A stretch of DNA of 64,000 nt from Calditrichaceae bacterium (GCA_050173015.1 JBFXLE010000004.1:67470-131469); one strand, 5' to 3'; shown: positions 17,791 through 47,175, numbered from the stretch's first letter. Numbers and translations are program-made. The notes: a model not told the origin generated them from the sequence alone.

Positions 17791-17835
17791 AAGCTTATCC
17801 CGACCCGATTTTGATGGTCGGGTATGCTTTTGTCT
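17791..17835 (+). terminator. Putative Rho-independent terminator after osmC
   Basis: CCCGACC (17799-17805) pairs with GGTCGGG (17816-17822) with extended flanking pairing, followed by TATGCTTTTGTCTG. Confidence 0.5.
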
Positions 17836-17901
17836 GAAAGAAGTTTATAGCAATCCGTCAAATTTCATCCGGTTCGGATCCGGGTTAAAGGAGTCTTTCG
17901 C

Positions 17902-18729: not shown

Positions 18730-19401
18730 ATGCGTTATGGTGTTCTTTTAATTCTTGGATTATTTGTTTTTCTGAGTTCCTGTGCAACGGTACCCCCGCC
18801 TTCGGAAATTGACGATGAAACGGATCTTGTCCTGGATCTGCCGCCGTATTCCGGTGAGAAACTTACCATCGCGGTCCTCGATTTGCAAAACCAAACCGAA
18901 TTTGACGACCCGAGAATCGGCCGGGGAGTCGCCAACATGTTAGTAACCGCGCTGGTAAATTCCGATCGTTTTACCGTAGTGGAGCGAAATTCTGAAGCGA
19001 TTCAAAAACTGCTGGAAGAACAGGCGCTCGGGTTAAGCGGAGTGGTGGACGCGGCTACAGCAGCCAAAGTGGGTAAAATGTTAGGAGCGAAAGGTGTAGT
19101 CATCGGGGAAGTCAGCGAATTCGGTATTCGAAAAACCGGAGCTTTCGTGGGAGTCGGGGGGCAAAAAACCATTACAACCAGGGTTGTCATTGACGCGCGC
19201 ATGGTGGATGTGGAAACAGGAAGAATTATGATGGCTTCCCCGGGTATTGGTAAAAGCAGAACAAGCACTTCGGGAATCGCTCTGACATTCGAATTCGGAA
19301 CAACCGGATTTGACGAAACGACTATCGGTATGGCCACCAGGAAAGCGGTAAACCAGATTGTCAAAAAATTTGCCATGACATTCAACCCGACTAATATTTA
19401 A
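18730..19401 (+). CDS. CsgG/HfaB-family lipoprotein (curli-type secretion channel family)
   Basis: Lipobox FLSSC. TIAVLDLQNQTEF...GRGVANMLVTALVNSDRFTVVERN...LLEEQAL matches the CsgG-family core as I recall it. Confidence 0.75.
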   Translation: MRYGVLLILGLFVFLSSCATVPPPSEIDDETDLVLDLPPYSGEKLTIAVLDLQNQTEFDDPRIGRGVANMLVTALVNSDRFTVVERNSEAIQKLLEEQALGLSGVVDAATAAKVGKMLGAKGVVIGEVSEFGIRKTGAFVGVGGQKTITTRVVIDARMVDVETGRIMMASPGIGKSRTSTSGIALTFEFGTTGFDETTIGMATRKAVNQIVKKFAMTFNPTNI

Positions 19402-19450
19402 TGTTAGTGTCTCAATAAAGACACTATTGATTTAATTTCATGGAGGATGT

Positions 19451-20356
19451 ATGAAAAGGACTATTTTGTATTTTCTTCTGTTTTTAACGATTGGTTTTAT
19501 GACTGTTCACGCGGATGACAACACTACGGATTTTAAGATTACCCCGCCGCCGGTATCATGTATCAAGTTTTTTCCAGGAGTAAAACAGTTCTCAGTCACG
19601 GGTATTTATTATAAAATGGGAGAACTTGAGGGTCAGACGGGATCCAGTGACAGTCCCGTCGCGTACGGGTTTAACGCGAATTACGCGTTTTCCTCTCCTA
19701 GTACCTTATTTGGAGCTCAAAACGGTGGAATCATTACTTTCTCTTATATGAGAATCACCATGCCGGCGGGTGCTTCCGAAATTTATGATGAGGATATAAA
19801 TACCAATTCTTTTAATTTGGGTTATACCGCGGTGTTGGATCTGATTAACGGGGAGAAAAGAGATATTGCCGGAGAAATAATCGCGCTCAAACCCACATGG
19901 GCGGTGTTTTTTGGCAGCTCTATCAATTACTTCAGTCTGAACATGGGGCCTTTGTATCAGGCATTCGGGCATTCACAGGATATCAAAGCCATAAACCTTA
20001 TAACGAGTCTTTCTTTGGGCTCGGCTGCTGATTTTCCTATCGGATCCCATATTGCCCTGGTCCCATTTATCCGTTATACAATGAATATAGCGCAAACCAT
20101 TATGGATGTGCCTGAACCATTTAATCCTGATAAGCTATACTCGGAAACTTATACATCAGACTACAGTTATCTGGATTATGGTATGGATATCGATGTCAGG
20201 CCTTTCAGCAATTCACCGGACTGGATCATCAGTCTGGGAACTGCAATGGCCCAGGTGGAAGGAATGAAAAACGGTAATCTTCTCATCACTTTGGGCATCA
20301 AACATGAAATTGGCAAGTACTACAGCAGCACAACGGTAGGACCCGCGCTTCATTAA
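19451..20356 (+). CDS. Hypothetical secreted protein, possibly an outer-membrane beta-barrel
   Basis: Signal peptide (FLLFLTIGFMTVHA). Alternating hydrophobic pattern, Gly/Ser/Tyr-rich. No recognised motif. Confidence 0.5.
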   Translation: MKRTILYFLLFLTIGFMTVHADDNTTDFKITPPPVSCIKFFPGVKQFSVTGIYYKMGELEGQTGSSDSPVAYGFNANYAFSSPSTLFGAQNGGIITFSYMRITMPAGASEIYDEDINTNSFNLGYTAVLDLINGEKRDIAGEIIALKPTWAVFFGSSINYFSLNMGPLYQAFGHSQDIKAINLITSLSLGSAADFPIGSHIALVPFIRYTMNIAQTIMDVPEPFNPDKLYSETYTSDYSYLDYGMDIDVRPFSNSPDWIISLGTAMAQVEGMKNGNLLITLGIKHEIGKYYSSTTVGPALH

Positions 20357-33201: not shown

Positions 33202-33654
33202 ATGAAATTATTAACGACATTTTTAGTCATCTTTTTTGCAGCCCTTTCATTATACGGTCAGGAAGTGCAGGTAAAGGAGAAAGTTAAGACGGAAGCCAAA
33301 GAAAAAGTACAGATCAAAGAGCAGGCAAAAACCGCCGAAAAAGAGCAAGTCCAGGTTAAGAACGAATTGAAAGAACAAGAACAGACTAAAAGCAAAGAAA
33401 TGATTCAGACCAAAACCAAAAAAGAAGAGCAGGTAAAAGAAAAAGTTCAGGAAAAAGCGGAAGAAAAGGCGCAGATCAAAACAAAAGAGCAAACAAAAGA
33501 ACAAACCGGATTTATTGATGAAGACGGCGACGGCATCAATGATAAGTCAAAAAAGGATGAAGGAAGTCAGTTTAAGGAAACCAACCGAAATCATTCCGGT
33601 GAAGGAACCACAAGCGAAGACGCGGCTAAACAGATTCAAAAAGGAAAGAAATAA
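33202..33654 (+). CDS. Secreted low-complexity Lys/Glu/Gln-rich protein with a DxDxDG motif
   Basis: Signal peptide, then degenerate KEKVQ/KEQ repeats, then FIDEDGDGINDK. The antisense F/L-rich ORF is a mirror artefact. Confidence 0.55.
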   Translation: MKLLTTFLVIFFAALSLYGQEVQVKEKVKTEAKEKVQIKEQAKTAEKEQVQVKNELKEQEQTKSKEMIQTKTKKEEQVKEKVQEKAEEKAQIKTKEQTKEQTGFIDEDGDGINDKSKKDEGSQFKETNRNHSGEGTTSEDAAKQIQKGKK

Positions 33655-33916: not shown

Positions 33917-33954
33917 TTGAAAAATGTAGATATTTCTACAATTTAAACTATAGG
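33917..33954 (+). promoter_or_regulatory. Candidate promoter with embedded 6-4-6 palindrome (MerR-style operator)
   Basis: TTGAAA (33917-33922), then TGTAGA-TATT-TCTACA (33925-33940), then TTTAAACTATAGG. The palindrome sits between the putative -35 and -10, as in MerR-regulated promoters. Confidence 0.4.
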
Positions 33955-33956
33955 TT

Positions 33957-34418
33957 GTGAGGATGGAAGAGAAAAAAGGCCAAAAAAATGTACTGTATCC
34001 CATAGGGATGGTCGCCAAAATTTTTGATATTTCTGTGGCGACGCTCCGGCTGTATGAAGCGGAGGGATTAATCATTCCACGCAAAAGTAAGGGAGGACAT
34101 CGTCTGTTTACAGAGGTCGATCTTGACCGTATCCACTGTATCAGGGATATGATTGATGAAAAAGGCCTGAATCTGGCGGGAATCCGCATGATGTTGTCGG
34201 CAATTCCCTGTTGGGAGTTAAAACCATGCTCCCTTGAAGAGCGCCAGAGTTGCGACGCTTATTATGAATCCAATTCTCCCTGCTGGATGGTCGAAAATAA
34301 AGCTGAAATTTGTGCTAATGAGGACTGTAGTCAATGTCCCGTATATACGCAATCAAACAATTGTACCAATATAAAAATGATTTTAAAGAAATATTGGAGG
34401 GCGAAAGGTAATGGCTAA
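33957..34418 (+). CDS. MerR-family regulator with a C-terminal Cys-rich (two 'CW' motifs) domain
   Basis: HTH YPIGMVAKIFDISVATLRLYEAEGLIIPRKSKGGHRLF. C-terminus PCWELKPCSLEERQSCDAYYESNSPCWMVENKAEICANEDCSQCPVY holds 8 Cys. The start may be the ATG at 33963. The 3' end overlaps the psrA-like start by 8 nt. Confidence 0.75.
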   Translation: MRMEEKKGQKNVLYPIGMVAKIFDISVATLRLYEAEGLIIPRKSKGGHRLFTEVDLDRIHCIRDMIDEKGLNLAGIRMMLSAIPCWELKPCSLEERQSCDAYYESNSPCWMVENKAEICANEDCSQCPVYTQSNNCTNIKMILKKYWRAKGNG

Positions 34419-36621
34419 GAAATTCGACAGACGCGAATTTATCAAAATTATGGGTGTCGGTACCGGAGGGGTAATGGTCGGTTCATCCATGTTGCAAGCG
34501 CTGGATTTTGGTTCGCTTAATGCCGTCACGCAAGGGGCAATGGACAGAACCCCCACCTACTGCGAGATATGTTTCTGGAAATGCGCCGGATGGGTTTATA
34601 AAAAAGATGATAAACCATGGAAGATCGAAGGTAATCCGGATGATCCAAACAGCAACGGGCGGTTTTGTCCCCGTGGGACAGGCGGTATTGGCGCGTATAA
34701 CGATCCTGATCGTTTAAAAACACCGCTAATCAGGGTTGAAGAACGTGGAAAACAGGTTTTCCGTGAAGCCTCCTGGGAAGAAGCGTTCGACTATATCGCT
34801 GAAAAAATGATTGATATTAAAGAAAATCATGGTCCGGAATGCGTGGCTTTGTTTACGCATGGTTCCGGCGGTGATTATTTTAAAACACTATTGCGGGGAT
34901 ACGGTTCAAACAACATCGCAGCTCCGTCATACGCTCAGTGCCGCGGGCCGCGTGAAGAAGCTTACATGCTTACTTTTGGCGAGGCGGTCGGTTCTCCGGA
35001 AAGAACCGATATCGCTAACAGTAAATGCATCGTTCTGATCGGATCACATCTTGGTGAAAATATGCATAACGGTCAGGTACAGGAGTTCTCTGAAGCGGTG
35101 GCAAAAGGCGCGTCTGTTATCACGGTTGACCCCAGATTTTCGACGGCCGCCAGCAAATCAAAATATTGGCTTCCGATAAAACCCGGAACGGATATGGCCT
35201 TACTTCTTGCCTGGATACATGTCATTATAAATGAAGAATTGTATGATAAAAAGTATGTGGAAAAATATACCTATGGATTTGAACAATTAAAGGCAGCGGT
35301 TAAGGATAAAACCCCGGAGTGGGCATACACGAAAACAACAATTAAACCGAACGTCATCCGGGAAACGGCCAGGGAAATGGCTAAAAACGCGCCTGCTACA
35401 TTAGTGCATCCGGGACGCCATGTTACATGGTACGGCGATGATACTCAGCGTGTCAGGGCAGGAGCAATCCTCAATGCGCTGCTCGGCTCCTGGGGACGCA
35501 GGGGAGGGTTTTATGTTCCAGCGAAAGCTCATCTCGCCAAAGCCAAATTACCTCCGTTTCCGGCAACCAACAAGAGCTGGAAAGACGCGTTCCCCGGGAA
35601 ATTCCCGCTGGCGAGCCTGGCCCTATCTTCGGGAATCTGTGACGCCACGATCCCTTCTCCCCAGCATGATTGTTCATTCAAGGGGTGGATCGTATACGGA
35701 ACAAATCTGCCGCTGACACTTCCGGAACCGAAAAAAACATTGGAAGCGATTCAAAATCTTGAACTACTTGTGGCGATCGATATCATGCCCGCGGAGATCA
35801 CCGGTTGGGCCGATGTTGTGCTTCCTGAATGCACATATTTGGAACGTTACGATGACATAAGAATATCTCCGGGACGCGTTCCGACCATTGCTTTACGCGC
35901 GCCGGCATTCGAGCCTAAGTATAATACAAAACCGGCATACTGGATGGCCAGGGAACTGTCAAAACGATTGGGTCTTCAGCAATATTTTCCGGCTGAAACG
36001 ATGGAAAAACATATTGATCAGAGACTCAAGACAATCGGCAGCAGTCTGAAAGAAATGAAAAAGATTGGCGTTAAGCGGTTTGAAAACGAATATGACCTCT
36101 ATTTTCTTAATGGAGAAGATTATGAGTTCGGCACGCCAACCGGTAAGATCGAATTATACTCAACCACACTAAGCGACGCGGGATTTGATCCAATTCCACA
36201 ATATACCGCCCATGAGGAACCGCCTGCAAATTATTACCGCCTTCTTTACGGACGGGCACCAATGCATACTTTTGGAAGGACAGCAAATAATCCTAACCTG
36301 AATGATCTGATGGATGAGAATGAAGTCTGGATAAATCCTAAAGTCGCCAAAGAATGGGGAATCAAGAACAGGCAATATATTAAATTAGAGAACCAGGATG
36401 GTGTCATATCTAATAAAATTCGCGTAAAAGTGACTGAACGAATTCGTCATGATTCAGTCTATATGGTTCATGGATTCGGTCACACACAGAAACAAATGAC
36501 CCGTTCTTATCAGAAGGGTGCAAATGACACGGGACTGATTAGCAGGGTTAAAGTTGATCCGATTATGGGAGGCACGGGAATGCGTGTTAATTTTGTCACC
36601 TTTAAGAGGGAGGTAGCGTAA
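34411..36621 (+). CDS. Periplasmic Mo-bisPGD oxidoreductase catalytic subunit, PsrA/PhsA-like (polysulfide/thiosulfate-reductase clade; substrate unproven)
   Basis: Tat signal (DRREFIKIMGVG). N-terminal FS0 motif CEICFWKCAGW...x27...CPRG. Its size (736 aa) and its PsrB/PsrC-like partners fit the clade. Confidence 0.85.
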   Translation: MAKKFDRREFIKIMGVGTGGVMVGSSMLQALDFGSLNAVTQGAMDRTPTYCEICFWKCAGWVYKKDDKPWKIEGNPDDPNSNGRFCPRGTGGIGAYNDPDRLKTPLIRVEERGKQVFREASWEEAFDYIAEKMIDIKENHGPECVALFTHGSGGDYFKTLLRGYGSNNIAAPSYAQCRGPREEAYMLTFGEAVGSPERTDIANSKCIVLIGSHLGENMHNGQVQEFSEAVAKGASVITVDPRFSTAASKSKYWLPIKPGTDMALLLAWIHVIINEELYDKKYVEKYTYGFEQLKAAVKDKTPEWAYTKTTIKPNVIRETAREMAKNAPATLVHPGRHVTWYGDDTQRVRAGAILNALLGSWGRRGGFYVPAKAHLAKAKLPPFPATNKSWKDAFPGKFPLASLALSSGICDATIPSPQHDCSFKGWIVYGTNLPLTLPEPKKTLEAIQNLELLVAIDIMPAEITGWADVVLPECTYLERYDDIRISPGRVPTIALRAPAFEPKYNTKPAYWMARELSKRLGLQQYFPAETMEKHIDQRLKTIGSSLKEMKKIGVKRFENEYDLYFLNGEDYEFGTPTGKIELYSTTLSDAGFDPIPQYTAHEEPPANYYRLLYGRAPMHTFGRTANNPNLNDLMDENEVWINPKVAKEWGIKNRQYIKLENQDGVISNKIRVKVTERIRHDSVYMVHGFGHTQKQMTRSYQKGANDTGLISRVKVDPIMGGTGMRVNFVTFKREVA

Positions 36622-37158
36622 ATGTCTCGATATGCAATGGCTATAGATACAAAACGATGTGTGGGTTGCGCCGATTGCGTTGTTGCCTGCCAGACGGAAA
36701 ATAATGTTCCGATAGGATACTGTAAAGACTGGATTGTTGAGGAAATGACCGGTGTCTATCCGGAATTACAGCTTGAAATCCGCTCAGAACGATGCAATCA
36801 CTGTGAAGACGCGCCCTGTGTGCGTTCCTGCCCGACCAGCGCCAGTCATTATGAAGAAGGTGGCATTGTTCTGGTGACTCATGAGGAATGTATCGGTTGT
36901 AAGGCGTGTATTGCTTCCTGCCCTTACGATGCAAGATTTGTTCATCCTGAAGGCTATGTGGATAAGTGTACATTTTGTATTCACAGAGTTAAAGACGGAA
37001 AAGATCCGGCATGTGTCAGCGTCTGTCCGACACACGCGATGATTTTTGGAGATCTGGATGATCCGAATAGTGAGATCTCAAAAACAATCCGTACGAGAAA
37101 AAATAAGACACTCATCCCGGAAGCAGGTACAAAACCTCATGTTTATTATCTGCTGTAA
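36622..37158 (+). CDS. 4x[4Fe-4S] ferredoxin subunit (PsrB/NrfC-like)
   Basis: Four Cys clusters: CVGCADCVVAC, CNHCEDAPCVRSC, CIGCKACIASC and CTFC...CVSVCP. Confidence 0.9.
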   Translation: MSRYAMAIDTKRCVGCADCVVACQTENNVPIGYCKDWIVEEMTGVYPELQLEIRSERCNHCEDAPCVRSCPTSASHYEEGGIVLVTHEECIGCKACIASCPYDARFVHPEGYVDKCTFCIHRVKDGKDPACVSVCPTHAMIFGDLDDPNSEISKTIRTRKNKTLIPEAGTKPHVYYLL

Positions 37159-37208
37159 AATATGAACCGGTTTTTAGGATTTGTAAATAAAATTTCTGGA
37201 GAATCAAA

Positions 37209-38162
37209 ATGAAAGAAATAACCATCACATCAGGGAGAATGAATCCGGGTATTGATCCGGTGCTTCATGCATGGGGTTGGGAAATCCCTGTTTACCTGTT
37301 TCTTGGAGGGCTTGTTGCCGGTATTCTGTTCTTCTCAACTCTATATTATATCCGCGGCCGACAGAATGACTACCCGACAGCGGTGAAAATCGCGCCGTTA
37401 TTTGTCCCCGTGTTTTTATCAATCGGATTGCTGGCGTTGTTTCTCGATTTGTCGCATAAACTCTATTTTTGGCGACTGTACACGACAGTCCGGTGGGAGT
37501 CACCGATGTCCTGGGGCGCGTGGACGCTTCTTTTAATCTTTCCGCTCTCCATACTCTGGATCGCAACATGGATCGAGGATGTATTTCCTAAATGGAACTG
37601 GAAATATAAAATATTAAAAATCAGCGCGGATTTACTAAAAAATTACCGCAAACTTCTGGCCTGGTCGGTTATGATCCTCGCGCTTATTCTCGGTATGTAC
37701 ACAGGTATTCTGCTTTCCGCCTTTAATGCGCGTCCATTCTGGAACACATCGATACTCGGGCCCTTATTTCTGGTTTCCGGTTTATCCACAGGAACGGCGT
37801 TCATCATTTTGCTGTCAAAATCTCATGAAGAGAAGAAAAGGTTCAGTCAGATTGATTTAACCCTGATTGGTGCGGAGCTGTTCTTAATCGTTCATATGTT
37901 TATGGGATTTCTGGCCAGCACCGAGGTCCATATTCAGGCCGCGGAACTTTTCCTCGGCGGACCGTACACCGCTGTATTCTGGACATTTATCGTCGGATTA
38001 GGGCTGGTGATTCCGCTTATTGTAGAGCTTCTGGAACTTCGCGGCGTGAAGATTCCTTTGCAAATTCCGGCATTGCTTGTGCTTATGGGCGGATTTATTC
38101 TGAGATTCATTGTTGTTGACGCCGGGCAGACTTCGAGATGGCTGTATAAGTTTTTGGAGTAG
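37209..38162 (+). CDS. NrfD/PsrC-family integral-membrane quinol-interacting subunit
   Basis: Eight TM segments with an NrfD-like N-terminus (WGWEIPVYLFLGGLVAG). Confidence 0.85.
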   Translation: MKEITITSGRMNPGIDPVLHAWGWEIPVYLFLGGLVAGILFFSTLYYIRGRQNDYPTAVKIAPLFVPVFLSIGLLALFLDLSHKLYFWRLYTTVRWESPMSWGAWTLLLIFPLSILWIATWIEDVFPKWNWKYKILKISADLLKNYRKLLAWSVMILALILGMYTGILLSAFNARPFWNTSILGPLFLVSGLSTGTAFIILLSKSHEEKKRFSQIDLTLIGAELFLIVHMFMGFLASTEVHIQAAELFLGGPYTAVFWTFIVGLGLVIPLIVELLELRGVKIPLQIPALLVLMGGFILRFIVVDAGQTSRWLYKFLE

Positions 38163-38248
38163 GGAGGAAGAAGAAGTAGGAAGTAAGAAGTAGGAAGTAG
38201 GAAGGTTAAGAAAAAAGAAAAAAGAAAAAAGAAAAAAGATTAAGAACG

Positions 38249-38341
38249 GTCTGAACCTGGATTAAAATGATTAAATGATTTGGATGATTAAGAAATTGGA
38301 AATCAGAGTTGTCATTTAATCAGTCGAATCAGAGTTCAGAC
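38249..38341 (+). other. 93-nt imperfect hairpin module, copy 1
   Basis: GTCTGAAC...GTTCAGAC closing stem; GATT/AATC; inner 10-bp stem GATTAAATGA/TCATTTAATC. Confidence 0.6.
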
Positions 38342-38420
38342 AAAGAAGTAAGAAGTAGGAAGTTGGAAGTGGGAAGTGGGAAGGTTAAGAAAAAAGAAAA
38401 AAGAAAAAAGATTAAGAACG

Positions 38421-38513
38421 GTCTGAACCGGGATTAAAATGATTAAATGATTTGGATGATTAAGAAATTGGAAATCAGAGTTGTCATTTAATCAGTCGAA
38501 TCAGAGTTCAGAC
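38421..38513 (+). other. 93-nt imperfect hairpin module, copy 2
   Basis: Same arms as copy 1, with a single substitution (CCGGG versus CCTGG) in the internal loop. Confidence 0.6.
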
Positions 38514-38592
38514 AAAGAAGTAAGAAGTAGGAAGTAAGAAGTAGGAAGTGGGAAGGTTAAGAAAAAAGAAAAATGAAAAAAGATTAAGAACG

Positions 38593-38685
38593 GTCTGAAC
38601 CGGGATTAAAATGATTAAATGATTTGGATGATTAAGAAATTGGAAATCAGAGTTGTCATTTAATCAGTCGAATCAGAGTTCAGAC
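38593..38685 (+). other. 93-nt imperfect hairpin module, copy 3
   Basis: Identical to copy 2 by eye. Confidence 0.6.
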
Positions 38686-38810
38686 AAAGAAGTAAGAAGT
38701 AGGAAGGTTTAAAAAAAATATTGGGTGAGGAAGTCCGTGCCCAAAGAAAAAAGTGGATCTTAAAATAAATATAAAGAATAATTCCGGGTTTTAACGAGAG
38801 GAATCAAAAG

Positions 38811-39314
38811 ATGAAAGAACAAAAGTATTGGTCACCCTATTTATCAGGAATTGGCCTGGGGATTACACTCTTGCTGGCTTTTGTGATTATGGGGCGGGGA
38901 CTTGGCGCTTCCGGTGCCATGATGAGGTTTGAAGTCTGGTTTCTAAACCTGTTCGCAGCCGATCATGTGGCGGCAAATCCTTATTTTAGCAAATATGCAA
39001 ATAATCCTTTGTCAAACTGGCTGATTTTTGAAGTAATTGGTGTCATTATCGGCGGATTTTTATCAGGGGCTCTCGCGGGACGCCTGAAATTTAAAATCGG
39101 CAAAGGTCCGAATATTTCAAACAAAGGGCGTTTAGCTCTTGCTTTTGGTGGAGGCGCCTTAATGGGATTCGCCGCGCGTTTGGCGCGAGGATGTACCAGT
39201 GGTCTTGCGCTTACCGGTGGGGCGACGCTCGCTCTTGGAGGCTGGGTTTTTATGCTGATGATCTTCGCGGGTGGATACATGACCGCATATTTCGTCCGGA
39301 GACAGTGGTTATAA
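38811..39314 (+). CDS. YeeE/YedE-family sulfur-compound transporter, half-size subunit 1
   Basis: GRGLGASGA and ARLARGCTSGLALTGG motifs (DUF395 'sulphur transport' signature). Confidence 0.8.
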   Translation: MKEQKYWSPYLSGIGLGITLLLAFVIMGRGLGASGAMMRFEVWFLNLFAADHVAANPYFSKYANNPLSNWLIFEVIGVIIGGFLSGALAGRLKFKIGKGPNISNKGRLALAFGGGALMGFAARLARGCTSGLALTGGATLALGGWVFMLMIFAGGYMTAYFVRRQWL

Positions 39315-39375
39315 ATCAATGATCGTCAAAGGGAATATGATCTGATAAGAATTTTAGATCTTCTCGGAAATTTAA

Positions 39376-39981
39376 ATGATGGAGAAAACTATGGCACCCT
39401 TTTTTAAAATGGGATTTTTTGGAGAGCAGACAAGTTTTATAATCGCTCTGATCCTTGGTATCAGTTTTGGTTTCTGGCTGGAAAGAGCCGGTTTTGGCGA
39501 CAGCCGTAAATTAGCCCTTCAATTTTATTTTGAAGATATGACGGTCCTGAAAGTCATGTTTACGGCCATACTGGTGGCGATGGTAGGAATGATGTATATG
39601 ACCTTGTTTGGCTATCTCGATATTGAAAAAGTATATATCAATCCGACATATATCTGGGCTCAGACAATCGGCGGACTCGTTTTGGGAGTCGGTTTCGCGA
39701 TCGGCGGATATTGCCCGGGTACCTCAGTTGTGGGCGCGGCGACTGGAAGAATTGACGGTTTTGTGTATATTTTGGGAGCTCTGTTCGGGATGTTCGTGTT
39801 TGGGGAGATGTTCCCGTTCATCGAAGAGTTCTATTATGCCGGTTTCATGGGTAACGCGAAGCTGACCGACTTTTTTGGTCTTTCCACCGGTGTGGTGGGA
39901 CTTCTCGTTATTCTGATGGCCGTGGGTATGTTTTACGGCGGTGAATGGTTGGAGAGAAAGTTCAGGAAGGAGACTGTATAA
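39376..39981 (+). CDS. YeeE/YedE-family sulfur-compound transporter, half-size subunit 2
   Basis: GFAIGGYCPGTSVVGAATG motif; 4-5 TM segments. Its stop overlaps the next ATG (TAATG). Confidence 0.8.
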   Translation: MMEKTMAPFFKMGFFGEQTSFIIALILGISFGFWLERAGFGDSRKLALQFYFEDMTVLKVMFTAILVAMVGMMYMTLFGYLDIEKVYINPTYIWAQTIGGLVLGVGFAIGGYCPGTSVVGAATGRIDGFVYILGALFGMFVFGEMFPFIEEFYYAGFMGNAKLTDFFGLSTGVVGLLVILMAVGMFYGGEWLERKFRKETV

Positions 39982-40607
39982 TGACATTTTCAAGCAAAAC
40001 TCTCGGTTTTGGTTTGTTGGTTTTATTGGGTCTGATTCTGGCATTCTCACCCGTGGATAAGATGAGCCGGAAGCCGGTTACAGCCGAACAACTGATCAAA
40101 GAAATCACGACAAAAAAAGATTTTGTTCAGCCGGAAGACCTGGCGCACTGGATTATTGATAAAGATCCGGGTTTTCAGGTGATTGATGTCCGGTCAAAGG
40201 ATGACTATGCAAAATATCATATTCCCGGAAGTGTCAGCATTCCGCTTGAGAAATTGGTCGATTCAGAGAGCAGGGACTATATCTATGCGAATAAAATGTT
40301 GATTCTTACTTCAAACGGAAACACAAATGCATCCCAGGCCTGGATTTTTATGAAGCAATTGGGATATAAGGAAGTTTATATTCTTTCGGGCGGAATGAAT
40401 TACTGGGTAGATGTTTTTAGCAATCCTAATCCTCCGGAAGGTAGCTACACGGACGATGAACTCTTCACTTACCAGTTCCGAAAAGCGGCTGGGCCGGTGA
40501 TGATGGGAACGGCGGTCGCTACTTCATCCGAAGTAACAATTGAAGCGCCGGCTCCTGTAAAAAGAGCAATCAGGATGCCAAAGAAAAAGCGTGATGAGGG
40601 ATGTTAA
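39981..40607 (+). CDS. Exported rhodanese-homology-domain protein lacking the catalytic Cys
   Basis: I chose the ATG at 39981 (MTFSSKTLGFGLLVLLGLILA signal/anchor) over the track's 39945. Rhodanese fold FQVIDVRSKDDYAKYHIPGSVSIP...LILTSNGNTNASQAW...GYKEVYILSGGMNYW. Ser occupies the active-site Cys position. Confidence 0.75.
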   Translation: MTFSSKTLGFGLLVLLGLILAFSPVDKMSRKPVTAEQLIKEITTKKDFVQPEDLAHWIIDKDPGFQVIDVRSKDDYAKYHIPGSVSIPLEKLVDSESRDYIYANKMLILTSNGNTNASQAWIFMKQLGYKEVYILSGGMNYWVDVFSNPNPPEGSYTDDELFTYQFRKAAGPVMMGTAVATSSEVTIEAPAPVKRAIRMPKKKRDEGC

Positions 40608-40615
40608 GATTACCT

Positions 40616-40651
40616 GAAGCAGGGCAGATAATTTCTGCTCTGCTTTTTTTT
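40616..40651 (+). terminator. Rho-independent terminator at the convergence point
   Basis: GAAGCAGGGCAGA-TAAT-TTCTGCTCTGCTT (one G:T pair) followed by T8. It abuts the stop of the minus-strand cytochrome gene. Confidence 0.7.
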
Positions 40652-42290
40652 ATTTGTTGAATAGTTCTTCTATGCCGTCGTTTTTAAATGCCCTTGTCCG
40701 CCACTTTTTGTAATCCGCCGATTTTTCCAACAATCTTCGTTGTTCCTGACTGTTTAATAAACGGCTTCCCGGTATAACAGGTTCGGTCGGCAGAGTTATT
40801 GAATTTGAAACGGAGTTCGAAAAAGCATTGCGAATTCCCAATCCGGCGGCTTTGGTATTACCGTGACAGCTTTCACAGACGCGCCCACTCTTCCCGGTTG
40901 TGTGGGGTGTGTACGCATCCCATGACCAACCGGGGCGCCCGTCAGATCTTTTCGGGATGACCGAATCAAGCCATAAATTTTCACTGGAATCCACATACGT
41001 TATAAAATACTGATGTAGCGGTCGGATAATTGAGTATTTTCCATTGGAATTTACTCCCAGCACGGGATCTTCCCATCGTCTGAACGACCAGCCTTTATAC
41101 CAGATTCCGGTTGATTCCACACCTGTTAAACGATTGGGCGAATGAGCGGTTGGCCGTACTGTCGGATCAATCAGAAACATATCGGTCAATAAATTGATAA
41201 CGGATTTATCTCCCTGCCAAATCAAATTTTCCCATATTTCATAATGTTTGGTTTCATCCAGAAAAAGATGAAGACCGTAATCCTGGTATGACCATTGCGC
41301 GTGACACGAACCGCAGGTTAAATCCGCGTGAAAATCCATATGTGATATGATGTCTTTATTAAATTTTATTACATCTTTTTTATTTGGAGCTTGTTTAAAT
41401 CCGCCGTGGCAATTTTCGCACCTGATATCCGAAGGCTGCTCTCCAAATTTTCTATTTCGGAAATCACCCATGACACTCTGTGAAGTGTGACAGTCAAGAC
41501 ATGTCATACCCGCATTCTGATGCACATCGGTAGCGAGACGGTGCTGATAGGCGCCGAAGAAGGGTTGGCTTCCGTAAGGCGTCGCGTATTCCTGATGATA
41601 GTCATGTTCAAAATAACCATAATAGTCACCACCGATATGATTATTTGAATGACAAGTCAGACAGGTTTTATCCACAACTTTTTTCTGCATTTTATGACCA
41701 TGCAGGGGCTCACCATTTTTCTGATCGAAGGGAATATGACAAGATGCGCATCCGCCGGCTCTTATTTTACCAGGCTGCTCATCCTTCCCTGAAGCGTTAA
41801 AGTGACAGGAAAGACATTTTTTTGCCAGCAGATTGTCCACGAGCTCCGGAGGGGTCGTACCTGTGGCGCGTCCTGTTCTGCCCAGCAGTTTCCATTGATC
41901 GGGATCAGGATTCGTAACAAGCGTTTTGTCTTTTCCCCAAAGATATCTGGTCTGTGAGATCATTCCCCCGGCAGAGTAGTGAAGGCTGTTTTTAAATTGA
42001 GTGATTTCTTTTTGATGACAGCTGAGACATTTTTCACGCCACCATTTTTCTAATGAAGGATTTTGTATCACACGCGAATGACCTGCCTGATCGGGTTGAA
42101 AATCAGCGTTTGGTGAGGAATGACAGTCCGCGCAGGTAATATTGCAGCTGGATTCAATACCCTTATGACAATCAACGCAGTTCTCGCCCGCGTATCCGGC
42201 GGACACGACCATGAGCAATAAAACCTGAAGGCTTATTTGTCGGATTAACCTCACAGAATAACAACTCTTAATCATCAATTTTTTCTGCAT
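40650..42290 (-). CDS. Decahaem c-type cytochrome (periplasmic)
   Basis: Signal peptide and 10 CxxCH motifs (CVDCH, CADCH, CLSCH x2, CASCH, CLTCH, CLDCH, CENCH, CGSCH, CESCH). Overlaps the upstream gene by 16 nt. Confidence 0.9.
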   Translation of the reverse strand: MQKKLMIKSCYSVRLIRQISLQVLLLMVVSAGYAGENCVDCHKGIESSCNITCADCHSSPNADFQPDQAGHSRVIQNPSLEKWWREKCLSCHQKEITQFKNSLHYSAGGMISQTRYLWGKDKTLVTNPDPDQWKLLGRTGRATGTTPPELVDNLLAKKCLSCHFNASGKDEQPGKIRAGGCASCHIPFDQKNGEPLHGHKMQKKVVDKTCLTCHSNNHIGGDYYGYFEHDYHQEYATPYGSQPFFGAYQHRLATDVHQNAGMTCLDCHTSQSVMGDFRNRKFGEQPSDIRCENCHGGFKQAPNKKDVIKFNKDIISHMDFHADLTCGSCHAQWSYQDYGLHLFLDETKHYEIWENLIWQGDKSVINLLTDMFLIDPTVRPTAHSPNRLTGVESTGIWYKGWSFRRWEDPVLGVNSNGKYSIIRPLHQYFITYVDSSENLWLDSVIPKRSDGRPGWSWDAYTPHTTGKSGRVCESCHGNTKAAGLGIRNAFSNSVSNSITLPTEPVIPGSRLLNSQEQRRLLEKSADYKKWRTRAFKNDGIEELFNK

Positions 42291-44071
42291 GGCAGGTGGC
42301 TCTCATTCCGGTACCTTTCGATACTTTGTTCAAAATTTCTATAAATGGCGTCATTATAGGTATCATGACAGGTGATACAAAGACTAACCCTGTAAATGTT
42401 TTTGATCTCTTTCATGTCAAACGGGCGGGCGGTGAGTCTTGACATGCGTTGGGTCAGCCTGCCCTGACCATCGGTCATCATCTCAAGGCTAGTTTTCCCA
42501 AGGCCGGCCGTTTGCGTATCGTACAGTTGCTGTGTTTCGAAACCATTTTCTCGCGGTTTCAGAAATCCTTCTCCCATTCCTAGACGCTTGATATTACTGT
42601 GGCAATCTATACATTCCGGCACTGATTTTCTTGTAGAATGCGGATCAAACGGGGCCATGGTCAGCCAGGTTTTTTGCTGTCTGATCTGCAAAGAGTCATT
42701 CAGTTCGGTTAAATACACCTGGCATCCGGGAGCGAAGGGCATAACCCGATCCAGATTGTCCACACCGAGTGTGGGTTTTTCATAGCGCAGGTATGAGCGT
42801 CCCTCACGCCAGTGGCCGAATGTTTCCTCATTGCTGACTTTGTCAAGCTGTTTTTTGGTGGGATCGTAAATATCATGACAACCGTAACACTGCGGCGTAT
42901 AAGCGGAGTGACAGGACTGACATCCCATCCTATCATGTCCCTGAAAATTACAGGCTTCATTATTTTTGTTTTGCGGAATTTCCAGCTCTTTACCGTCAAG
43001 TTTTCTGGTCAGCACGGGCTTTCCCGACCGCATTTCTACATTGGCGTAAAATGAACCGCGGGTTGTTCTTGCCAACAGGGAATCATCCGGCATCATAAGA
43101 TTTTGGTTGACAGATATAATTTTCCATACAATATTATCCGCGGGAGGACGTTCAAATTCCGCGTCATGACAGTCTTCACATTTGATATGCACCTGCTGTT
43201 CAAGGTGCTCGTATCTTTTGCCGTCTCCCATGATATCTTCCGCGACATGGCAGTCGATACAGGTCATTCCCGCGTCAAAATGGACATCCGCTGTTATATG
43301 ATAGTAAAATCTGCCGCCTGAGAGTTCCATTTGGGAAGTATTTCCGCCCTCATAGGGTGTGCCGTATCCTTCTGATTCAAATTTTCCCTGATAGGTCAGC
43401 GCTGTTCTGTTGGAGCGGTTATGGCATTTTTCACAGGTCGGGATATCGATTTCCACACTCAGCGTTGGATGTATTTTCAAATTCTCGTTTTTCACCAGGT
43501 GACAATCGTTGCATCCGCCACCGCGTTCTCCGATTTCTCCGGGGAAATCATTTTCGCGTTTATTGATATGACAACTCGCGCAAAGCTTTCGGAGATGCGA
43601 GGTCGCCAGCGAAGTGTCCGGAATGTTCTGATCTATATGAAGCGTGGAATCATCGGGAGTTGATTTTTCATACCATTGATAGAGAGTTGACGCAACCAGT
43701 CCTGAATTTGAAGTCATTATGGAATTTTTAACGGAATGCGCCAGATCGGAATGGCATTCGCTTTTACCGCAGGTTTGGTCAACCCAGTGTAGATCGGATG
43801 GATTCCTGACCATGCCGTAGTGCGCGTTTCTTTCATCGGCTGCATCCGGATTTCCGAGATGACAGGTGTAACATCCAAAGATTTTATTTGGGTGTGAAGA
43901 ACTCATATCCTTCTCATCAGCATGACAGGAAATACAGCGGTCAGGCCGATTAAGGGCGTTTATGTTATCATTCGTGCCGTTATTCTGTATGGTTAAAATG
44001 ATAACCAGAAGAAGAATCAAAATTGAAAGAATTAAATATGTCCGGGGTTTCATCTGTTTAAAAATTGCCAT
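42275..44071 (-). CDS. Multihaem c-type cytochrome: 11 CxxCH plus 1 CxxxxCH, with an N-terminal membrane anchor
   Basis: CISCH, CYTCH, CASCH, CNDCH, CEKCH, CIDCH x2, CEDCH, CQSCH, CYGCH, CITCH, plus CGKSECH. Shares the block DVHxxAGMTC(I/L)DCH with the decahaem paralogue. Confidence 0.9.
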   Translation of the reverse strand: MAIFKQMKPRTYLILSILILLLVIILTIQNNGTNDNINALNRPDRCISCHADEKDMSSSHPNKIFGCYTCHLGNPDAADERNAHYGMVRNPSDLHWVDQTCGKSECHSDLAHSVKNSIMTSNSGLVASTLYQWYEKSTPDDSTLHIDQNIPDTSLATSHLRKLCASCHINKRENDFPGEIGERGGGCNDCHLVKNENLKIHPTLSVEIDIPTCEKCHNRSNRTALTYQGKFESEGYGTPYEGGNTSQMELSGGRFYYHITADVHFDAGMTCIDCHVAEDIMGDGKRYEHLEQQVHIKCEDCHDAEFERPPADNIVWKIISVNQNLMMPDDSLLARTTRGSFYANVEMRSGKPVLTRKLDGKELEIPQNKNNEACNFQGHDRMGCQSCHSAYTPQCYGCHDIYDPTKKQLDKVSNEETFGHWREGRSYLRYEKPTLGVDNLDRVMPFAPGCQVYLTELNDSLQIRQQKTWLTMAPFDPHSTRKSVPECIDCHSNIKRLGMGEGFLKPRENGFETQQLYDTQTAGLGKTSLEMMTDGQGRLTQRMSRLTARPFDMKEIKNIYRVSLCITCHDTYNDAIYRNFEQSIERYRNESHLPCRKN

Positions 44072-44961
44072 CCATCCCCTCGAAAATATGTACCAATGAT
44101 GCTTTCAATCATATAAATAATAATCATAAGGAGTATAAAATACAGCACGGACTTTTCAAATTTCTTTACTACCGGTAACAGAAAGAAGGCGATGAGTATC
44201 AGCGAGGGGAAAACAACACCAGCGATCGAAACCGGCAGCCAGGCAAGAAGTTCCTGCAATCCGATGAAGTACCAGGGTCCTTTTACAACTTCAATAACCG
44301 CGTCCGGTCTGAATCCCAGTTTTGCGGGAAACAAAATTGCAAAAAGTGAGATCAATATGATTGTATATGCAAACGCGTACCGCTCCGATTTTAATCTGTG
44401 AATATGAATATAGGTAAGAATCACGGATAAGATTGAAAAAGTGGCCGCGTGATGCGTATAGATTACCGCCAGCGGTGTTGTTGAACGTTCCGACTGCAGG
44501 AGAAAGTTTGACAGAGTATTCCCAAGCGCGGGAAGCGTTTGCAGGATTCCGTCAAAGATATGCACCGCGGAAAAACTTTCCTTGCTGCCGATACTTAAAA
44601 ATCCGCTGAAGACGGTAAGAATGGAGATTACGAACAGAATGATAAGCAATCCCCATGATTTCATGGTATAGCTTTGATAAGTTTTTTTTAAAAGATATTC
44701 AATGATATGGATGACTGTTGAAATTAGAAATATATCACCCGCGTAAGAATGGAAACCGTGTAAAAAAGCACCCATATAGCCGGCGCTGATGAATTGACTG
44801 ACACTCCGGAATGGATCGTCGCCGGAAATATAGAAGGGTATGAGCATTAATCCTGAAATCAGGGCTAATACAAGGCTGCTGAGTGAAATTTCCCCCCAGC
44901 CCGGCATCCACAATGTTTTTTCAAAAAAGACTGATCGGTTCAAGATTTTATCCATTTTCAA
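44050..44961 (-). CDS. Cytochrome b of a Rieske/cyt b complex
   Basis: FHSYAGDIFLISTVIH gives H-x13-H and HAATFSILSVILTYIH gives H-x14-H, the bis-His haem ligand spacing of helices B and D. A Qo-loop-like GPWYF sits where PEWYF occurs in canonical cyt b. Confidence 0.75.
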   Translation of the reverse strand: MKMDKILNRSVFFEKTLWMPGWGEISLSSLVLALISGLMLIPFYISGDDPFRSVSQFISAGYMGAFLHGFHSYAGDIFLISTVIHIIEYLLKKTYQSYTMKSWGLLIILFVISILTVFSGFLSIGSKESFSAVHIFDGILQTLPALGNTLSNFLLQSERSTTPLAVIYTHHAATFSILSVILTYIHIHRLKSERYAFAYTIILISLFAILFPAKLGFRPDAVIEVVKGPWYFIGLQELLAWLPVSIAGVVFPSLILIAFFLLPVVKKFEKSVLYFILLMIIIYMIESIIGTYFRGDGWQFLNR

Positions 44962-44967
44962 AAAAGA

Positions 44968-45363
44968 TCAAATAATTATCTCAATATCATTCGTTTCGTT
45001 GAGTTTATAATCCAGATCGGTCAGATTTTTTTTTGCCGGTCCGGATAAATAATTCCCTTCATTGTCAAATTTGCTGCCGTGACAGGGGCAGATGAACATT
45101 TTGCTGTTTTCGTTAAAATTTACGGTGCATCCCAAATGAGTACATTTTTTTGAAATGATGCGCAATTTTTGATGGTCAGTTCTGACAAAGAAAAATTCGG
45201 TTTCCTTCAGGTCTTTCAATTTTAATTTTAGAACATGTTTCTTTTGGGAAATACGATTTAAAAAACCGGAAAATGGAAAATACAAAAGACCTGCAGCCAG
45301 AAATAAAATTCTCCGGCCTAATGTATGTAAAAATGTGCGGCGTTTGTAAGTGTTTTCCGACAT
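44968..45363 (-). CDS. Rieske [2Fe-2S] protein
   Basis: CTHLGC...CPCHGS cluster-binding boxes. N-terminal RRTFL Tat-like motif plus a TM anchor. Confidence 0.85.
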   Translation of the reverse strand: MSENTYKRRTFLHTLGRRILFLAAGLLYFPFSGFLNRISQKKHVLKLKLKDLKETEFFFVRTDHQKLRIISKKCTHLGCTVNFNENSKMFICPCHGSKFDNEGNYLSGPAKKNLTDLDYKLNETNDIEIII

Positions 45364-45403
45364 ATCAATTATTTTTTTGTGAGACTATTTTATATGATAA
45401 GGG

Positions 45404-46543
45404 TTAGATCCCCGATGAGTCATTCTTCTCCCGGACAGTTGTTTCGACTGTTAAAACCTGGATGAAGAGCTGTGTCATAAAACTGTCCAATCTCCTGATT
45501 CCCTTATTATCTCCGGATACGATCCAGCTTTGCCGGATAATTTGTTTAAATAAGGGGAACAATCCAATTATAGATTCAATTTCCGGCGAATAGTGTATTT
45601 TTTTTCTGCTCAAATATGACCTGAGTTTGTTGATCACTATCGGTCCTAATATAAAGTACCAGATAGTCATTATAAGAACGGATCTCGCTACCATTAATAA
45701 AGCTGCTGTTCCTTGGTTTTTCTCAAATACGGGAAAAATATAGGACAAAATCAGGATCGATGATATAATCACGAGTAGCATTATATTGGAAAATTTATGC
45801 CAGGGACGTTTTCTTTTCTTTTTTTTCGGAGGATTATCCGCTTTATCAGAATCCACAGTCAGATTCAACGATACCGGATTGTTTTTTAATTCGTTTTTTA
45901 TTTTAACGCTAAGGATAGGCGCCCAAACACCTGCCGATACACCGGCCGCAACGTGAATGCCTACATATAGAATGATAAATAAGGCGCTGATGCTGAGTGG
46001 CAGGGAATCCGTTCCTGAAAGAAAAAGTTGACCAAGAATATATTCTGTAAACAAGTCAATCGAATTCCACAGATTATTACCGAAAACAACGGTCAAAATG
46101 ATGATTTTCTGAATTCCCGATTGAAACAAGGCCAGAGCTCCGAGGATGGGAGCGGCTATACCGGGGTATTTTATCCATCGGAATATAAATTCACCGAACA
46201 AACCCTGCAAACCCACGGCGATATACGCGGTAATCGGTGTGTGTGGACTGACAAGACCTTTCACAATTAAAACCAATAGAGTGGCGCGGAGAATGGTGTT
46301 TTTTTTATCCGAAAAACAAGCGATAAGCGTCATAAATATCACAGCGCTGCTGCCGATTATCAATCCGGTGAACGGGATTTTAAATGCATGCAGAATGCCT
46401 CCGAGTCCTGCTTCGCTTAAGGCCCAAAGCGCTGTAATTCGGTCGATAGCTCTCGTACGGGAAAAGTAATACCCGGCCGGAGAATCATTGGTAATCATTG
46501 TATTTTTGATGGGATTATTCATTTTTCTTGCTTCAGGTATCAC
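45404..46543 (-). CDS. Polytopic membrane protein of unknown function
   Basis: About 9-10 TM segments interrupted by a basic loop (PPKKKKRKRPWHK). A 4-nt overlap joins it to mobA. No family recognised. Confidence 0.6.
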   Translation of the reverse strand: MIPEARKMNNPIKNTMITNDSPAGYYFSRTRAIDRITALWALSEAGLGGILHAFKIPFTGLIIGSSAVIFMTLIACFSDKKNTILRATLLVLIVKGLVSPHTPITAYIAVGLQGLFGEFIFRWIKYPGIAAPILGALALFQSGIQKIIILTVVFGNNLWNSIDLFTEYILGQLFLSGTDSLPLSISALFIILYVGIHVAAGVSAGVWAPILSVKIKNELKNNPVSLNLTVDSDKADNPPKKKKRKRPWHKFSNIMLLVIISSILILSYIFPVFEKNQGTAALLMVARSVLIMTIWYFILGPIVINKLRSYLSRKKIHYSPEIESIIGLFPLFKQIIRQSWIVSGDNKGIRRLDSFMTQLFIQVLTVETTVREKNDSSGI

Positions 46544-47175
46544 TCTGTCTGATCAGGAAACTCATCTGTCTGCATCAATCTTGCCAGGTCTTCCCGGGTA
46601 TTGACATTATAAAAGTATTCGGGTTTATACCCCGGCATATTATTGGGGATATCGACCTGAACGGCGTTTAAGCGTGAAAGAAGTTTGTGCAGACTGTAAT
46701 TTCCCTCACGGATTGACTGTTCGACGATCCTTAATGCGTTGGCCGGCCAGATAGAGACCAAGGGCTCGATACCCTTATCGGACTTTGCGACAACTGCTTG
46801 ATCGGCCGATCGGGAGTTCATCATATAATGATACACTTTTGCCGAAAGGCGGGGCATATCACATGGCAGAACGGCAATCCATTGGTCCGGGAAACAGGCC
46901 AGCGCCGTATAGATACCGCCAATAGGCCCCCGGTCGGTAACTTTGTCCCGCACAGACCTGATGTGATCAAAATATTTGATCTCTTCCGGGCCTGAAACGA
47001 TAACGATATTGTCCGCGATACCTTCAGCCAGCCCGGCGGCCCAGTCTATAAGTCGCTTATTTTTATAGACAGCTGTGACCTTCGAAGTACCAAATCTGGC
47101 GCTTTTTCCACCGGCAATGATCGCCGCGGAAAGTGCATTTATATTTTCCAAACATTTCTCATAGTAAATGATCAT
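46540..47175 (-). CDS. mobA: Molybdenum cofactor guanylyltransferase MobA
   Basis: LSAAIIAGGKSARFGTSK...LPCDMP pattern of MobA/NTP_transf_3. Confidence 0.8.
   Translation of the reverse strand: MIIYYEKCLENINALSAAIIAGGKSARFGTSKVTAVYKNKRLIDWAAGLAEGIADNIVIVSGPEEIKYFDHIRSVRDKVTDRGPIGGIYTALACFPDQWIAVLPCDMPRLSAKVYHYMMNSRSADQAVVAKSDKGIEPLVSIWPANALRIVEQSIREGNYSLHKLLSRLNAVQVDIPNNMPGYKPEYFYNVNTREDLARLMQTDEFPDQTE

Follow-up and report, generated by a model that had tools for sequence, protein, structure and literature searches.

Recurrent linkage of a Psr-type molybdoenzyme cassette with a Rieske/cytochrome b–multihaem module points to a probable sulfur-compound respiratory system in Calditrichaceae

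A 64,000-nt stretch of DNA from a Calditrichaceae bacterium (GCA_050173015.1, JBFXLE010000004.1:67470-131469; hereafter the window) contains a respiratory island at 33917-47175, all positions being counted from the first letter of the window. The plus-strand arm of the island encodes a polysulfide reductase (Psr)-like molybdenum enzyme, PsrABC, preceded by a MerR-family regulator and followed by two half-size YeeE/YedE genes and a rhodanese-fold protein (Rhd). The convergent minus-strand arm encodes a MobA-like enzyme, a 379-residue membrane protein (Unk379), and a Rieske protein, a cytochrome b, a 12-haem and a 10-haem cytochrome c, the last four of which are referred to here as the bc–multihaem module. 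The island is read here as a single co-inherited periplasmic system for the respiration of sulfur compounds (chalcogens), built of two menaquinone-linked modules, and comparison of its sequence with related loci gives this reading a probability of about 0.75. The pairing of the two modules recurs across phyla, which suggests that they probably work as one sulfur respiration system.

Linkage of the two modules across genomes

Genes were placed from a six-frame list of open reading frames (ORFs) and identified by Pfam and NCBIfam profile searches, and 80 loci with a 12-haem protein, taken from species-representative genomes, were searched with all island proteins. The original prediction had proposed a functional link between the two arms and had named loss of synteny in related genomes as the observation that would speak against it. 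In the loci searched, synteny is conserved and has been re-invented in different arrangements across phyla. Psr genes adjoin the bc–multihaem module in Calditrichota, Campylobacterota, a Bacteroidota-labelled metagenome-assembled genome (MAG) and Desulfurellaceae, with at least four gene arrangements and at least three PsrA lineages among the linked loci; Thermus PsrA is a closer match to the PsrA clade of the window than the Campylobacterota clade is. PsrA was adjacent in 18 of the 40 12-haem loci with Rieske/cytochrome b genes, as against 1 of the 42 without them (Fisher p = 3e-6, ignoring phylogeny).

The order Rieske–cytochrome b–12-haem–10-haem is nearly universal in Calditrichota, and the run merR–psrABC–yeeE–yeeE–rhd is adjacent to it in seven loci of this phylum. 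It is convergent in L002, L005, L008 and L009, lies some 6 kb downstream in L001, and runs co-directionally in L010 and L084, where psr to rhd is followed in the same direction by Rieske to the 10-haem gene. Two assemblies (GCA_013581895.1 and GCA_013581875.1) carry a gene-for-gene identical island, and relatives of the 12-haem protein are present in Calditrichaceae MAGs (97% and 88% identity) and in Caldithrix abyssi (59%). In one Calditrichaceae species (L015/L085), a single bc–multihaem module is flanked by two molybdenum cassettes, each with its own YeeE pair and its own rhodanese-fold protein with the C-terminal tail EGC described below. The second cassette of L085 (13694-19418) directly follows the 10-haem gene and has a PhsC-type anchor (Ni_hydr_CYTB) instead of NrfD; judged by its gene content, this locus has both a Psr-type and a Phs-type enzyme attached to a single bc–multihaem module. 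The L002 locus, from an assembly labelled Caldithrix abyssi, contains at 8727-19799 a second Rieske/cytochrome b pair and two multihaem cytochromes beside the Psr genes, with DsrE_2- and DsrC-like genes beyond merR. The genome paper of this species described Psr genes, 'two sulfur transferases' and a single Rieske/cytochrome b pair in the Nap locus (PMC5317091).

Outside Calditrichota, the bc–multihaem cluster was found in Sulfurospirillum, Campylobacteraceae and Arcobacteraceae, and eleven Campylobacterota loci pair PsrC–PsrA–PsrB with Rieske–cytochrome b–12-haem–10-haem, mostly on one strand and divergently in two (L069 and L073). Sulfurospirillum UBA6810 (L071), for example, has the order Rhd–PsrC–PsrA–PsrB–Rieske–cytochrome b–12-haem–10-haem. 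The possibility that the Campylobacterota clusters lack PsrC, and that their molybdenum enzyme thus depends on the bc complex, was rejected: a 380-residue NrfD protein with 9-10 transmembrane segments is encoded upstream of PsrA. A single strand of the Bacteroidota-labelled MAG (L170) carries mobA, Rieske, a fusion of cytochrome b with a multihaem cytochrome, merR, psrABC, two yeeE genes and rhd, in that order, with unk379 convergent. The link is also present in a Desulfurellaceae MAG and in a mislabelled high-GC MAG (PsrA 59% identical). Moreover, a rhodanese gene, a YeeE pair or both flank the Rieske/cytochrome b-bearing module even where Psr is absent (L028 and L056).

The bc–multihaem module and the Psr cassette

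On its profile scores, the bc–multihaem part of the minus-strand arm is a homologue, and not an equivalog, of the ExtMNOPQ-type complex of Geobacter. The ExtM hidden Markov model places residues 41-579 of the 12-haem protein on positions 17-586 of a 599-position profile with 311 bits, the equivalog cutoff being 800, and the 303-residue cytochrome b matches ExtP in its N-terminal part and ExtQ in its C-terminal part. Work of 2010 identified the Geobacter cluster (GSU2930-2937 or GSU2930-2940) as a conserved 'bc complex' that includes 12-, 10-, 5- and 2-haem cytochromes (Butler 2010, PMC2825233); the name extHIJKLMNOPQS followed in 2018, with ExtH as the rhodanese-like member (Jahan 2018, PMC5877670). 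In 2026 the ExtKL product, MccSep, was reported to be a periplasmic polysulfide reductase that is essential for respiration of elemental sulfur (S0) and whose electron donor is 'unidentified' (PMC13510729 and preprint). The cluster of Geobacter sulfurreducens thus resembles the island in its 12-haem, 10-haem, Rieske and cytochrome b proteins, in its rhodanese-like protein and in an adjoining periplasmic polysulfide reductase. However, the partner enzyme in the island is the molybdenum enzyme PsrABC rather than the pentahaem selenoprotein MccSep, and the gene order is O-P/Q-M-N rather than M-N-O-P-Q, with the cytochrome b fused to the ExtQ-like part. The porin ExtI as well as ExtJ, ExtKL (MccSep) and ExtS are not encoded in the window, where neither a further CxxCH-rich ORF nor a MccSep-like cytochrome was detected. 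The claim that the island represents an undescribed combination therefore stands only for the pairing: the Rieske/cytochrome b/22-haem module is homologous to the Geobacter complex known since 2010 and 2018, and no paper describing its pairing with Psr was found in a search that covered literature other than subscription papers (for example, Sulfurospirillum genome papers).

The module shares with complexes of the bc1/b6f type the four cytochrome b histidines, the motif of the quinol oxidation (Qo) site and the Rieske boxes with their disulfide cysteine pair, but the 12-haem protein stands in for the c1/f subunit. The four histidines, the Qo motif GPW[YF]F and the Rieske boxes (CTHLGC...CPCHGS) were invariant in the alignment. 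At E <= 1e-30, the 12-haem family comprised 222 cluster representatives (50% identity). Of the best 150 of these, 29 were cytochrome b::12-haem fusions of about 900 residues; such a fusion is also present in L170 (17294-20044, minus strand), and a single 12-haem::10-haem fusion of 1134 residues with 19 CxxCH motifs was found in L021 (1722-5126). Because both kinds of fusion occur, we argue that the 12-haem protein would be the c1/f-equivalent subunit of the Rieske/cytochrome b complex. An apparent cytochrome b::12-haem fusion in L032 was discarded as a frame artefact of a high-GC contig. Neither the 12-haem nor the 10-haem protein had a usable relative in the PDB by sequence. Alignment of 77 12-haem homologues showed that Cys450 (in PxCQV) is conserved in 100% and Cys595, near the C-terminus, in 92% of them, and that Met119, Met281 and seven histidines, none of them part of a haem motif, are fully or almost fully conserved. 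Only histidines are conserved outside the motifs of the 10-haem paralogue. Cys450 and Cys595 may be ligands of His/Cys haems, and Met119 and Met281 of His/Met haems; His/Cys ligation is known from sulfur-converting cytochromes, MccSep included. A Calditrichota MAG (L001, 10001-14632) has an AAA_14/DUF4143 gene between the 12-haem and 10-haem genes and no Rieske/cytochrome b genes upstream, and its module may be decaying.

The catalytic subunit of the plus-strand arm falls in the Psr/Phs clade of sulfur enzymes. Residues 6-732 align with Thermus thermophilus PsrA (PDB 2VPW_A) at 718 bits and 48% identity, and the molybdenum-ligand cysteine is conserved ('AQCRGPRE' in the island, 'SLCTAPRE' in Thermus). 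The protein bears a twin-arginine translocation (TAT) signal with the motif RREF and a Molybdop_Fe4S4 domain. It scored 495 bits with the NCBIfam PhsA equivalog model, the cutoff of which (694) was not reached. An arsenate reductase was considered and rejected (ArrA 140 bits, compared to 718 bits for PsrA). These comparisons indicate that the molybdenum enzyme is a Psr/Phs-clade member and no PhsA equivalog. An FeS subunit with four clusters and an NrfD anchor are encoded beside it, in agreement with a Psr-type architecture. The same A/B/C architecture, with a TAT-exported subunit that binds a molybdenum–bis(pyranopterin guanine dinucleotide) cofactor (Mo-bisPGD) through a cysteine ligand and with an NrfD-type anchor, is found in Thermus thermophilus PsrABC (PDB 2VPW-2VPZ) and in Psr of Wolinella succinogenes, where a rhodanese-fold accessory protein, Sud, is likewise encoded alongside. 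The island adds to these systems the two half-YeeE genes, a Cys-rich MerR, Unk379 and the bc–multihaem module. The MerR tail carries about nine conserved cysteines in a pattern that is kept in the Bacteroidota-labelled L170, and merR heads the Psr cassette in Calditrichota and metagenome loci.

The two YeeE genes are permuted, with the C-terminal half encoded first and the N-terminal half second, and each keeps one Cys-containing motif. Both belong to PF04143 and scored 49 and 21 bits with the TsuA models, far under the cutoffs of 400-645. They share with the thiosulfate uptake system YeeE/YeeD (TsuA/TsuB) the Sulf_transp family, Cys-containing GCxxG-type motifs and a Cys-bearing partner encoded directly downstream. 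However, the channel is split over two permuted genes, whereas TsuA is expected as a single polypeptide of about 330 residues, and the partner is a rhodanese-fold protein that bears a signal or anchor, whereas YeeD is cytoplasmic and TusA-like. No small TusA-like ORF was seen in the island.

The downstream start of the rhodanese gene is the more likely one, as it was gene-called in the 97% relatives, and yields a protein of 208 residues. The original prediction had likened this protein to Sud, an analogy that holds for the fold only: the active-site cysteine used by Sud is absent from the loop 'LTSNGNTNASQ', as it is from all cassette homologues in the alignment. Instead, the sole cysteine of the mature protein is its last residue, at the end of an invariant Lys/Arg-rich arm terminating in EGC-COOH. 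A word-index search returned 88 rhodanese-fold homologues, nearly all from Calditrichota. The EGC tail was found in the window, L002, L008-L010, L015, L028, L032 and L170. It is present in the Bacteroidota-labelled MAG (KKKKREGC) and, on a rhodanese with two domains, in a Desulfobacterota MAG. Since the C-terminal cysteine arms of SoxY and DsrC are analogous, the rhodanese-fold protein could act as a sulfur carrier with a swinging arm.

The proposal that MobA connects the two arms gains support from relatives, in which mobA and unk379 belong to the Psr cassette. The MobA-like protein of the island scored 118 bits (NCBIfam cutoff 164; aligned over 16-203 of 211). Its gene is a neighbour of merR in L009, L134 and L141 and comes first in the operon of L170. 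Unk379 has 563 homologues, mostly in Calditrichota, Ignavibacteria and Bacteroidota, that lack a Pfam domain. In 16 of 40 metagenome loci of at least 6 kb, its gene converges on merR–psrABC–yeeE–yeeE–rhd (PsrA 54-59% identical), several of these loci having mobA just past merR, and in a C. abyssi-like contig (L088) it follows mobA–mobB. Its AlphaFold2 model (pLDDT 86, pTM 0.83) had no fold match in the PDB. The Unk379 family tracks mobA/mobB and the Psr cassette across bacteria of the Fibrobacterota–Chlorobiota–Bacteroidota (FCB) group and is a candidate Mo-enzyme-associated or sulfur-handling membrane factor. As delimited by these loci, the conserved unit is a Psr cassette consisting of mobA, merR, psrABC, the two yeeE halves, the rhodanese gene and unk379, and the bc–multihaem module is an optional insert at varying sites. 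Neither this extended cassette nor the EGC-tailed carrier nor the Unk379 family is described in the searchable literature. The module is inserted between unk379 and the rhodanese gene in the window, and because of this position mobA and unk379 are apparently co-transcribed with the bc–multihaem genes.

Gene content and boundaries of the island

The features of the island are listed in Table 1. The gene positions, the haem counts (10 and 11+1), the gene overlaps of 4, 16 and 22 nt on the minus strand, the repeat array and both hairpins are as originally predicted. The genes on either side of the island (for a type IX secretion system (T9SS) surface protein, a tetratricopeptide repeat (TPR) lipoprotein and a phosphoesterase) are unrelated to it, and the borders therefore remain as first stated. 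The view that two terminators bound the minus-strand operon needs revision. Both hairpins are real, but the one at 47302-47273 is upstream of mobA and belongs to the end of the adjacent TPR gene; by this position, it is an element that insulates the mobA operon rather than terminating it.

Table 1. Features of the respiratory island, with positions counted from the first letter of the window
Feature	Position	Strand	Evidence
MerR-family regulator, Cys-rich C-terminal tail	33957-34418	+	Pfam MerR_1 1e-17
PsrA/PhsA-type Mo-bisPGD catalytic subunit, 736 aa, RR signal	34411-36621	+	Molybdopterin, Molydop_binding, Fe4S4 domains
PsrB four-cluster ferredoxin	36622-37158	+	Fer4_11 5e-25
PsrC, NrfD-type quinol-interacting membrane anchor	37209-38162	+	NrfD 2e-46
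Tandem array, 172-bp unit x 3.1, psrC-yeeE spacer	38171-38706		TRF score 972
Half-size YeeE/YedE, C-terminal half of Sulf_transp profile, RGCTSG motif	38811-39314	+	PF04143 4e-24, profile 174-309
Half-size YeeE/YedE, N-terminal half of profile, GYCPGT motif	39376-39981	+	PF04143 2e-14, profile 13-152
Rhodanese-fold protein, N-terminal signal or anchor	39945-40607 (probable start 39981)	+	Pfam Rhodanese 7e-17, 62 bits
Terminator-like hairpin, 42-nt convergent gap	40616-40646	+	13-bp stem, then T run
10-haem cytochrome c (ExtN/ExtM-related), signal peptide	40650-42290	-	10 CxxCH; ExtM 153 bits, ExtN 104 bits
12-haem cytochrome c (ExtM homologue), N-terminal membrane anchor	42275-44071	-	11 CxxCH + one CX4CH; ExtM 311 bits
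Cytochrome b, b6-like + subunit-IV-like fused (ExtP+ExtQ)	44050-44961	-	Pfam Cytochrome_B; ExtP 68, ExtQ 25 bits
Rieske [2Fe-2S] subunit, RR signal anchor	44968-45363	-	Pfam Rieske 1.5e-12; CTHLGC...CPCHGS
Unk379, 379-aa polytopic membrane protein	45404-46543	-	no Pfam or NCBIfam match
MobA-like molybdenum cofactor guanylyltransferase	46540-47175	-	NTP_transf_3 2e-28; NCBIfam MobA 118 bits
Hairpin ending neighbouring TPR gene, upstream of mobA	47302-47273	-	12-bp stem, then T run

The 172-bp tandem unit, which opens with purine-rich heptads (GAAGTAG/AAGAAAA), is present as a single copy in the 97%-identical relatives (L086, L087 and L090), and the psrC–yeeE spacer is only 15-20 nt long in more distant relatives. 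Judged by this distribution, the array is a recent strain-level expansion of an element inserted in the operon and no conserved part of the system. An Rfam scan of 33-48 kb detected neither a molybdenum cofactor (Moco) riboswitch nor any other family. A shared MerR operator for the two promoter regions was also considered: their single common 10-mer (TCATTTAACA; about 0.1 expected by chance) sits upstream of the terminator and provides no evidence for one. Just upstream of merR (33202-33654) lies a gene for a secreted, low-complexity protein of 150 residues that is rich in Lys, Glu and Gln, has no Pfam match and is kept in the 97% relatives.

Electron flow and competing explanations

Gene identities, motifs, linkage and fusions were observed; for the substrates, the direction of electron flow and the protein contacts between the modules, we infer the following. 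In a tentative reductive scheme, which we rate at somewhat below an even chance, both modules would drain menaquinol onto oxidised sulfur species at different potentials. PsrC, PsrB and PsrA would reduce polysulfide or thiosulfate at the molybdenum centre in a low-potential step without a Q cycle, while a Q cycle of the Rieske/cytochrome b pair would deliver electrons through the 22 haems to a chalcogen acceptor of higher potential (tetrathionate, selenite, or S-S species on the carrier cysteine). The membrane-anchored 12-haem cytochrome would take the place of cytochrome c1/f, the 10-haem cytochrome would extend the wire, and the invariant Cys450 could supply a His/Cys haem for the chalcogen-acceptor step. 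The YeeE pair and the EGC-tailed carrier would move or present sulfur species. Most likely, the two modules meet at the menaquinone pool without direct electron transfer, because PsrABC has its own quinol site and a menaquinol-type Rieske protein cannot reduce polysulfide. Taken together, a single chalcogen respiratory system working in two tiers would be the best overall explanation of the island, at what we consider even odds.

A comparable division of labour exists in part elsewhere. Salmonella uses ttr and phs in a sequential chain from tetrathionate through thiosulfate to sulfide. Together with the Qcr-dependent periplasmic reductases of Campylobacterota for nitrate and trimethylamine N-oxide (TMAO) (Garg et al. 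2018, as cited in PMC6896113), this chain offers an analogy in which a Rieske/cytochrome b complex would serve higher-potential periplasmic acceptors and an NrfD- or PhsC-anchored molybdenum enzyme the low-potential sulfur step. Those systems use a c-type protein with one or two haems as cytochrome partner, whereas the partner has 22 haems here, and genetic nesting is not described in the available accounts of them.

Several points weigh against a single system and against the reductive scheme. PsrABC has its own quinol site, so a second quinol oxidase is not required. The potential of a menaquinol-type Rieske protein (about +100 mV) cannot drive polysulfide reduction (about -260 mV), which makes the acceptor of the haem wire a guess. 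Psr cassettes without a bc–multihaem module occur in L134 and L141, most Desulfobacterota have the 12- and 10-haem pair without Rieske/cytochrome b and Psr in unrelated contexts, and all NCBIfam Ext scores of the minus-strand arm are below the equivalog cutoffs. Finally, with H2 or acetate C. abyssi showed no growth by respiration of S0 or thiosulfate (PMC5317091). On the other side, this species does form sulfide from S0 and thiosulfate (PMC5317091), and the only experiments on the Geobacter Ext cluster are reductive (PMC5877670, PMC13510729).

These reductive data also count against an oxidative chain, the main rival but a rather unlikely one, in which a reversed PsrABC would hand electrons from sulfide, polysulfide or thiosulfate to menaquinone. 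From the menaquinol, electrons would pass through Rieske/cytochrome b and the 22-haem wire to an acceptor in the periplasm or outside the cell (nitrate/nitrite reductases, Fe(III)/Mn(IV) or a partner). To our knowledge, all characterised Psr/Phs enzymes are reductases, and we know of no member of the clade shown to run oxidatively. Moreover, the island encodes neither a terminal acceptor enzyme nor an outer-membrane conduit. Nevertheless, the chain would be downhill throughout by established potentials, from S0/HS- (about -270 mV) and menaquinone (-74 mV) to the Rieske centre and the haems. The cluster is present in Sulfurospirillum, Campylobacteraceae and Arcobacteraceae, groups that include sulfide oxidisers, and in C. 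abyssi the cassette has a sulfur-relay set (DsrE_2, DsrC-like) as its neighbour. An oxidative chain would also mirror the proposal for cable bacteria, in which sulfur oxidation feeds the quinone pool, PetAB and periplasmic cytochromes (PMC13047784). That model, like the island, combines Psr/Phs, rhodaneses and YeeE with a c1-less Rieske/cytochrome b complex feeding multihaem cytochromes; however, its genes are dispersed instead of forming one island, its proposed direction is oxidative and its cytochromes differ.

A selenium, tellurium or other metalloid substrate is improbable. On this view, the molybdenum enzyme would be a selenite reductase resembling Srr, selenium would be moved by the YedE halves, and 'selenite/tellurite reduction' would be the role of the Ext-type complex, as the NCBIfam name of the Ext families ('selenite/tellurite reduction operon') suggests. 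The potential of selenite (established at about +0.2 V) fits a bc-type outlet, loss of ExtI impairs both selenite and tellurite reduction, MccSep reduces selenite, and there are weak matches to YedE/FdhT and to '(seleno)protein rhodanese'. However, MccSep has a 7-fold preference for polysulfide and is indispensable for S0 respiration, the YedE and seleno-rhodanese matches score far under the cutoffs, and PsrA is nearest to a solved polysulfide reductase and distant from ArrA-type enzymes at 140 bits. It is similarly doubtful that the modules are functionally independent anaerobic respiratory units which became neighbours because they share regulation, because both require Moco and haem maturation, or by genomic hitch-hiking. 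In favour of independence, many genomes have one module without the other, Psr owns its quinol anchor, and among the Calditrichota loci whose flanks were long enough, Psr is not adjacent in about half, which also counts against a single system. Independence is difficult to reconcile with a linkage that was rebuilt in the several gene orders and PsrA lineages described above, including single-strand arrays with short gaps, with the contrast in PsrA adjacency, and with the nesting of the module in the cassette, between unk379/mobA and the remaining cassette genes. Rhodanese and YeeE genes also accompany the module where Psr is missing, and Geobacter has ExtH.

Extending the two-tier reading to the whole family leads to a proposal that we regard as unlikely in its full form. 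The ExtMNOPQ-type complex would be a dedicated engine of chalcogen respiration rather than a generic quinol oxidase, its Cys450 His/Cys haem would be catalytic or interact with the carrier, and it would be the long-sought membrane partner of periplasmic polysulfide reductases that differ in their chemistry, the molybdenum enzyme Psr here and the haem/selenocysteine enzyme MccSep in Geobacter. Combined with Psr, the split YeeE and the EGC carrier, it would form a two-tier energy-conserving chain or, in the reversed direction, an electrogenic chain from sulfide to the haem wire.

The finding bears on energy conservation in sulfur, polysulfide and thiosulfate respiration and on the electron donor of MccSep. 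The conserved 'bc complex' of Geobacter has been without an assigned function since 2010, and genes for a 22-haem Rieske/cytochrome b module are recurrently linked with those for Psr cassettes, rhodaneses and YeeE channels in at least four lineages, which ties it to chalcogen chemistry. The published respiratory inventory of C. abyssi is extended beyond the single Rieske/cytochrome b pair of the Nap locus. A fuller Psr cassette is also defined, which includes the hitherto uncharacterised EGC-tailed rhodanese-fold carrier and Unk379, a membrane protein family likewise uncharacterised. Testable systems are available in cultured Caldithrix abyssi and in Sulfurospirillum, a genus with cultured members in which MAGs carry the cluster.

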